DNA of 64,000 nt from Escherichia phage Pu-Krd-SF1: the sequence record PQ249395; one strand, 5' to 3'. The position numbers were made by a program, and so were the translations under genes. Below are positions 41,479 through 41,779 of the stretch, piece by piece (the first letter of the stretch is position 1; the number at the start of each line of letters is the position of its first letter). The notes beneath the pieces were generated by a model. That model worked only from the letters and a program-made list of their open reading frames with translations. It was not told the DNA's origin and searched no databases.

Positions 41479-41527
41479 AATTATGAACTATTATTAGAAA
41501 GTTATTTATCTTTAACCGGTGGAATAA

Positions 41528-41641
41528 ATGTTAGGACCTTTGTTGCTTATTATCGGTTTAGGTCTGTTTGCTTTTTTGGGACTTTTTGTTATGTTGGTTA
41601 GAAAAGAGAGAATTTCATCGAATAGCCAAACGCCCAGTTAA
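41528..41641 (+). CDS. Hypothetical small hydrophobic peptide
   Basis: 37-aa ORF MLGPLLLIIGLGLFAFLGLFVMLVRKE... in the b-gt/uvsX intergenic region. Confidence 0.3.
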   Translation: MLGPLLLIIGLGLFAFLGLFVMLVRKERISSNSQTPS

Positions 41642-41779
41642 CTGAGACTTCAAGCGATAATGCTAAAAGATTGAGTGATAAAATTATTCTATCTTAAATA
41701 AGTTTTAATGTAGTTACTCTAAGTATAAACCCTCTATTAAACCGTGAGGAAAATATAATGATGCTTATGGAAAAAATGA

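Follow-up and report, generated by a model that had tools for sequence, protein, structure and literature searches.

A segA-free b-gt/uvsX junction with a short hydrophobic open reading frame in Escherichia phage Pu-Krd-SF1

The interval between b-gt and uvsX in phage Pu-Krd-SF1 (PQ249395) is, very likely, an endonuclease-free form of the T-even b-gt/uvsX junction. The stretch of DNA that was analysed (64,000 nt, referred to here as the window) is a Tequatrovirus (T4-like) segment whose + strand runs antiparallel to the T4 map, and the gene order at the locus is gp43, imm, 42, b-gt, a 301-bp gap (41479-41779), uvsX, 40 and 41. The product of the left flanking gene matched the Pfam family PF09198 (T4-Gluco-transf, E=2e-94). 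The sole + strand ATG open reading frame (ORF) of at least 30 aa within the gap is 37 aa in length, and the original prediction, an interval of about 300 bp holding a 37-aa hydrophobic ORF at 41528-41641, was exact in both coordinates and description. A minus-strand ORF of 95 aa (41737-42024) that overlaps uvsX was judged to be spurious. The features of the locus are as follows.

40423-41478, + strand: b-gt, left flank, encoding a T4-type beta-glucosyltransferase (351 aa; 96.3% identical to T4 b-gt)
41387-41418, + strand: equivalent of the T4 promoter PsegA in the 3' end of b-gt (MotA box agaTGCTTTC, 41387-41396; -10 TATTTT, 41409-41414; start-site equivalent, 41418)
41479-41626, + strand: stretch shared with T4 (148 bp, 95% identical), containing most of the span of the small ORF
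41518-41523, + strand: Shine-Dalgarno-like GGTGGA, 5 nt before the ATG of the small ORF, an imperfect match to GGAGG
41528-41641, + strand: 37-aa hydrophobic small ORF, MLGPLLLIIGLGLFAFLGLFVMLVRKERISSNSQTPS
41627-41736, + strand: lineage-specific spacer, found whole in only 8 phage records, part of it ~76% similar to the G3F8 group
41661-41684, + strand: candidate native uvsX middle promoter, a pattern match (MotA-box-like TGCTAAA, 11-nt spacer, -10 TAAAAT)
41737-41779, + strand: conserved uvsX 5' leader (Shine-Dalgarno-like GAGG, 41746-41749; short upstream ORF from 41758)
41780-42961, + strand: uvsX, T2-type allele (393-aa ORF)
41780-42440, + strand: divergent tract of uvsX (60-88% identity to T4 per 60-nt window; 95-100% to T2)

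Free-standing homing endonuclease genes, of which the GIY-YIG gene segA is one, are well known to be patchily distributed among T-even phages. On the T4 map (NC_000866.4), uvsX occupies 22386-23561, segA 23570-24235 and b-gt 24400-25455, and the review of Edgell et al. 2010 (PMC2988022), citing Sharma & Hinton 1994, gives uvsX/b-gt as the insertion site of segA and uvsX as its target gene. The statement that T4 carries segA between b-gt and uvsX, with which the original prediction began, is thus borne out by both sources, and the possibility that T4 segA maps elsewhere was checked and fails. The window holds no GIY-YIG ORF of ~220 aa between the glucosyltransferase gene and uvsX; in agreement with the predicted absence of an endonuclease gene, the longest ORF in the gap is that of 37 aa and tblastn with T4 SegA gave zero matches in 41479-41779, the best SegA-like match within the window lying outside the gap, at 21818-22156. 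Alignment of the interval to T4 and other T-even genomes likewise confirmed the segA-free junction. Among about 580 records that matched the junction query, most of them only over the uvsX part, 26 carry segA; 17 of these are T4 or T4-like strains with b-gt, and in the other 9 segA directly follows the T2-type gene b-a-gt. For most of the remaining records the common ground is only the last 43-56 bp before uvsX, and in the segA-free examples that were sampled (T2 and IME340) a gap of 77 bp follows a transferase of 280 aa. The absence of segA is the norm among T4 relatives and no peculiarity of Pu-Krd-SF1, and since so few of the related records carry the gene, it is T4 that represents the exceptional form.

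The interval consists of three parts, a T4-like left part, a lineage-specific spacer and the conserved uvsX leader, and it is visibly mosaic, resembling T4 at its left, the G3F8 group in its centre and T2 at its right. Identity to T4 is about 95-97% through gene 42, b-gt and the 148 bp that follow the b-gt stop codon. This homology stops at 41626, from where T4 runs on into segA and the window has 153 bp that are absent from T4. Only 8 phage records among those matching the junction query contain the 301-bp interval intact; in Pu-Krd-SF3 to SF7 it is 100% identical, and in 236Ecol005PP, HMD-9 and PTE-Eco15 it is 98.9-99.7% identical. An apparent duplication of ~43 nt inside the spacer gained no confirmation from a repeat search and is not claimed here.

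When the junction was compared with the T4 b-gt/segA/uvsX locus (NC_000866.4 22386-25455), the shared elements were b-gt (96% at the amino acid level), the next 148 bp (95%, including the start of the small ORF), the box and -10 element of PsegA, which are unchanged, and the distal third of uvsX together with gene 40. In contrast to the window, T4 has segA with the promoter PuvsX embedded in it, a divergent first ~650 nt of uvsX and a small ORF of 24 codons, and it is without the spacer and the uvsX leader. The T2-type junction (b-a-gt, 77-nt gap, uvsX; NC_054931.1), which is the majority form, is likewise endonuclease-free and has the same 43-nt leader (93%) and the same uvsX allele (97% at the nucleotide level over uvsX and gene 40). 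However, the glucosyltransferase of T2 is unrelated and 280 aa long, T2 has no small ORF, its promoter abuts the stop codon of the transferase gene, and its gap measures 77 bp compared to 301 bp here.

The allele of uvsX also distinguishes the segA-free from the segA-carrying form. Compared with T4, the window uvsX is divergent over 41780-42440 and 96-100% identical past ~42440, whereas compared with T2 it is 95-100% identical throughout; the T4-type divergent first ~650 nt that mark a segA locus are not present, and the window allele is of the T2 type. Conversely, PD112, which has b-a-gt and segA, carries the T4-type tract up to ~nt 655 of uvsX (91-100% identical to T4, 65-88% to T2). As judged from these alignments, segA is always accompanied by the divergent first ~650 nt of uvsX, which is the pattern expected of intronless homing with flank co-conversion, as described for SegB, SegE, SegF and SegG (PMC2330249). 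The segA locus resembles the T4 seg systems (SegE, SegF, SegG, SegB) in being a patchy GIY-YIG gene with its target in a neighbouring conserved gene and with co-conversion of the flank; the difference is that the window presents the recipient-type allele only. By its sequence, the window is a recipient-type, segA-free uvsX allele, which may be cleavable by SegA (a putative 'SegA-sensitive empty site') and into which segA could presumably home.

We propose the following scheme for the origin of the two forms. In most T4 relatives, the glucosyltransferase gene would be followed by a MotA-type middle promoter, the conserved leader of ~45 nt and uvsX, and in T4 and a handful of other phages this junction is occupied by segA, a free-standing GIY-YIG gene. 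The segA product would cut the uvsX gene of segA-less phages, and segA would be copied in by recombinational repair along with the initial ~650 nt of uvsX from the donor, displacing the native promoter and leader, with the result that PuvsX of T4 would now lie inside segA. Pu-Krd-SF1 would then represent an 'empty site', with T4-type b-gt, the native leader, a T2-type uvsX allele and no segA, a state that would be ancestral or else have been regained through recombination with a phage lacking segA. Transcription of the gap's left third would start at the PsegA equivalent, and the first ORF reached, encoding the 37-aa peptide, would be a former or marginal membrane-protein gene that was not kept among the nearest relatives. 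The 95-97% identity to T4 over b-gt and the next 148 bp makes a T4-like ancestor plausible, and the lineage could have formerly had segA and lost it by simple deletion. We regard such a loss as highly improbable, since a deletion could neither recreate the leader and promoter region that T4 does not have nor turn the segA-linked 5' tract of uvsX into the T2 type, and tblastn found zero fragments of segA left in the window gap.

The left junction of T4, between ttcatcgaatagc and agttgattaatgacATG, agrees with the 3' end of the T2-type transferase gene, a situation also seen in PD112, and is without the 9-nt caaacgccc of the window. This match suggests an origin of the T4 form in which a b-a-gt-type phage donated a segA cassette and a genome of the window type (b-gt and small ORF) took it up by recombination at a short homology, although the direction of the transfer is inferred. 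At the 3' end of the small ORF, ~17-25 nt (window 41610-41645) resemble the 3' end of T2-type b-a-gt in another frame; the short shared block was located at 3317-3343, 2440-2470 and 1500-1530 in the compared loci L001, L004 and L089, respectively. In both settings this block marks where the segA cassette is bounded on its left, and it resembles a junction of module exchange.

We next consider the promoters of the locus. Middle promoters of T4 follow the rule of a MotA box, wwwTGCTTtA, 12 +/- 1 bp upstream of a -10 element, TAnnnT, and among the mapped ones are PsegA (start site 24460) and PuvsX (start site 23752) (Hinton 2010, PMC2988021). On the T4 map, the start site of PuvsX falls within segA, and PsegA lies within the last 100 nt of b-gt. 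The PsegA equivalent of the window (41387-41414) conforms to this rule; its box, spacer and -10 element are the same as those of T4, and of the 46 nt compared only 2 positions, farther upstream, differ. The presence of this unchanged promoter in the segA-free window indicates that the T4 promoter PsegA is older than segA. The PsegA equivalent is presumably active in Pu-Krd-SF1, where it would transcribe the left third of the gap, and the first ORF downstream of it in the window is the 37-aa small ORF. The second element, at 41661-41684, is a putative promoter of uvsX. Its box, TGCTAAA, departs from TGCTTtA at 2 positions, and the 11-nt spacer and the -10 TAAAAT fit the rule; matches to the relaxed MotA-box/-10 pattern number 30 in the window compared to 8.6 expected (3.5-fold), and the + strand accounts for 21 of the 30. 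At the corresponding position the G3F8 group carries this element too, as TGCTAAA-N11-TATAAT. A search of the + strand for a terminator and a sigma-70 promoter found neither.

As expected of an endonuclease-free T-even junction, the leader directly before the uvsX ATG follows the consensus ...GTGAG(G/A)AAAATATAATG..TATGGAAAAAATGA. These ~43 nt are 93% identical in hundreds of T-even-like records, and their layout consists of a strong Shine-Dalgarno sequence (GAGG/GAGA), 8 nt, and an ATG that opens an upstream ORF (uORF) of 6-18 codons with its stop codon at -3 to +35 relative to the uvsX ATG. In the IMG/VR loci, where about 20 of 32 distinct leaders still align, the last 40 nt of the alignable leaders are 78-92% identical to the window, the sequence farther upstream 54-65% and the uvsX coding sequence 74-98%; where it aligns in the T4-like lineages, the leader equals the uvsX coding sequence in degree of conservation. 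T4 wholly lacks the leader, with its Shine-Dalgarno sequence and uORF, in agreement with the view that seg insertions displaced native promoters (PMC2988022). The uORF and strong Shine-Dalgarno sequence of the leader may serve as a translational coupling or control device for the recombinase. The putative transcript and the leader were folded as well, and neither gave more structure than shuffled sequences (z = 0.04 and 0.32, respectively); a search of Rfam gave no match, only sub-threshold noise.

The small ORF encodes a predicted transmembrane segment (residues ~2-24) followed by the basic/polar tail RKERISSNSQTPS. In architecture only, it has the form of a small single-pass membrane peptide, like that of type I toxins (helix of ~20 residues and a charged tail). 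Its length alone is unremarkable, since 7% of the shuffled intervals (dinucleotide composition preserved) contained an ATG ORF of at least 37 aa. The most hydrophobic 19-residue stretch has a Kyte-Doolittle mean of 2.89, which 0 of 5000 shuffles equalled. Over the 3' half of the small ORF, a second frame is open as well. No family was found in Pfam or PHROG, phmmer against 1.84 billion representatives found no relative (a single match to a 461-aa protein was rejected as compositional), and the sequence is absent from a collection of 15 billion proteins. With tblastn against phage records only the 8 near-identical genomes were matched, because the hydrophobic half of the query was masked. A degenerate DNA pattern for MLGPLLxIxGLG gave zero matches in IMG/VR; in metagenomes it gave one, within a 198-aa membrane protein, which was taken as chance. 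The small ORF is annotated as hypothetical protein PTEEco15_132 in vB_EcoM_PTE-Eco15 and is unannotated in the records of Pu-Krd-SF4, 236Ecol005PP and HMD-9.

A counterpart is present in another Tequatrovirus group, G3F8, in which 12 phages have a 37-aa ORF (G3F8_059 of vB_EcoM-G3F8, QZI82026.1, hypothetical) at the corresponding site, with a b-gt homologue on one side and the uvsX promoter on the other. It has the same length, transmembrane segment and charged tail, and the next element downstream is the same promoter-like sequence with the ~76% similar spacer. The two peptides share the N-terminus MLGPLL-I-GLG-F (11 of the first 14 residues identical), and over the first 15 codons the nucleotide identity is 73%, with 8 of the 12 differences at third positions (p=0.019). 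However, they are dissimilar past codon 15 (29% nucleotide identity over codons 16-37), the similarity does not extend over the whole protein, and the upstream context of G3F8_059 has an extra 283-aa glycosyltransferase. Other lineages have unrelated-looking hydrophobic ORFs of 35-42 aa in the same position, one of them with 10 variants that are all 42 aa long.

Among the nearest relatives, the small ORF is identical to that of the window in Pu-Krd-SF3 to SF7, and indels shift its frame in three other records. A 2-nt deletion in 236Ecol005PP and HMD-9 leaves 23 aa without a transmembrane segment, PTE-Eco15 has T5 instead of T6 and reads 38 aa with another C-terminus, and in T4 the ORF ends after 24 codons. 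The 5 distinct alleles thus give 4 reading outcomes, and the frame is not preserved in the manner of a gene under purifying selection. Since the frame is changed or broken in 3 of the 4 other alleles, T4 among them, the small ORF is probably at best a dispensable or decaying gene for a small membrane peptide.

Two other readings of the small ORF were weighed against this one. It could be an accessory gene that is functional, its product being an inner-membrane peptide that spans the membrane once, with the N-terminus outside and the basic tail on the cytoplasmic side. Its expression would fall in the middle period, and it would belong to a set of small membrane-peptide genes found in several T4-like lineages just upstream of the uvsX promoter. 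This we consider a tentative possibility. The hydrophobicity that no shuffle equalled argues for it, as do the Shine-Dalgarno-like GGTGGA, the conserved promoter (mapped in T4) 110 nt upstream, the G3F8-group ORF with its shared N-terminus and third-position-biased differences, and the positional analogues of 35-42 aa, one of which keeps a constant length in its 10 variants. However, the four outcomes among the five nearest alleles (37, 23, 38 and 24 aa), the loss of similarity to G3F8 after codon 15 and the failure to find a family or any relative in the databases all argue against a gene that is maintained. The same lack of frame preservation would be accounted for if the small ORF were a chance frame in T-rich non-coding DNA, its 5' part being conserved for a reason at the DNA or RNA level, such as a recombination junction or a transcript leader; consistent with this are the frequency of such lengths among the shuffles, the two open frames over the 3' half and the ~17 nt of the 3' end that resemble the b-a-gt 3' end, where they stand in another frame. 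We nevertheless think a chance frame unlikely, given the third-position bias in the 15 shared codons, the extreme hydrophobicity, and the lack of both an RNA structure signal and an Rfam match.

A broader proposal would be that the small ORF and its 35-42-aa analogues are a PsegA-driven membrane-peptide gene, that the uvsX leader is a control or coupling device, and that both are real features that have gone unstudied; both could have escaped notice because the segA insertion lost or broke them in T4. We hold this proposal as doubtful.

The variation described here is of an ordinary and already known kind, and identical sequences are already in GenBank. The window shows clearly what the recipient-type, segA-free allele looks like beside a T4-type b-gt. 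What is mildly new is that PsegA predates segA, and that T4, the model phage, is atypical in having lost the uvsX leader with its uORF, which nearly all its relatives have kept. Beyond book-keeping, the finding has little importance.

The original prediction had also held that the complement of selfish genes differs from that of T4 throughout, and comparison of the whole window with T4 1-76000 by blastn and tblastn upheld this. Of the T4 genes, mobA, segF, segA, mobB, mobC and I-TevII are absent from the window by these searches. A homologue of mobD is present at 8475-9254 and is 99% identical to T4 MobD; it is probably inactive because of an in-frame stop at codon 76 (8700-8702). Four endonuclease-like genes, two of the GIY-YIG/NUMOD3 type and two HNH mob-like, occur where T4 has none or another.

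19190-20011: endonuclease gene between 49 and nrdD (NUMOD3; phrog_7504)
21812-22642: seg-like endonuclease gene at the mobC position (phrog_314, 2e-60)
30134-30880: HNH mob-like endonuclease gene before gene 46 (phrog_655)
48190-49026: mob-like endonuclease gene at the segF position (phrog_655)

Several other differences from T4 were observed in the window. The nrdD gene is uninterrupted at 20537-20540, the T4 group I intron with I-TevII (~1 kb) being absent. Genes 39 and 60 are fused into one ORF of 605 aa (59728-61545), and at the junction (61145-61210) mobA, 60.1 and the stretch with the translational-bypass region of gene 60 are absent. A T4 segment of ~900 bp that includes dam (DNA adenine methyltransferase) is missing at 47621-47642, with ~20 nt instead, and tblastn with T4 Dam gave zero matches in the window. 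Between imm and 42, a strongly hydrophobic ORF of 49 aa (39502-39651), annotated as hypothetical in PTE-Eco15, lies inside a continuous blastn alignment to T4, where the 153-nt imm/42 gap is unannotated in NC_000866.4.
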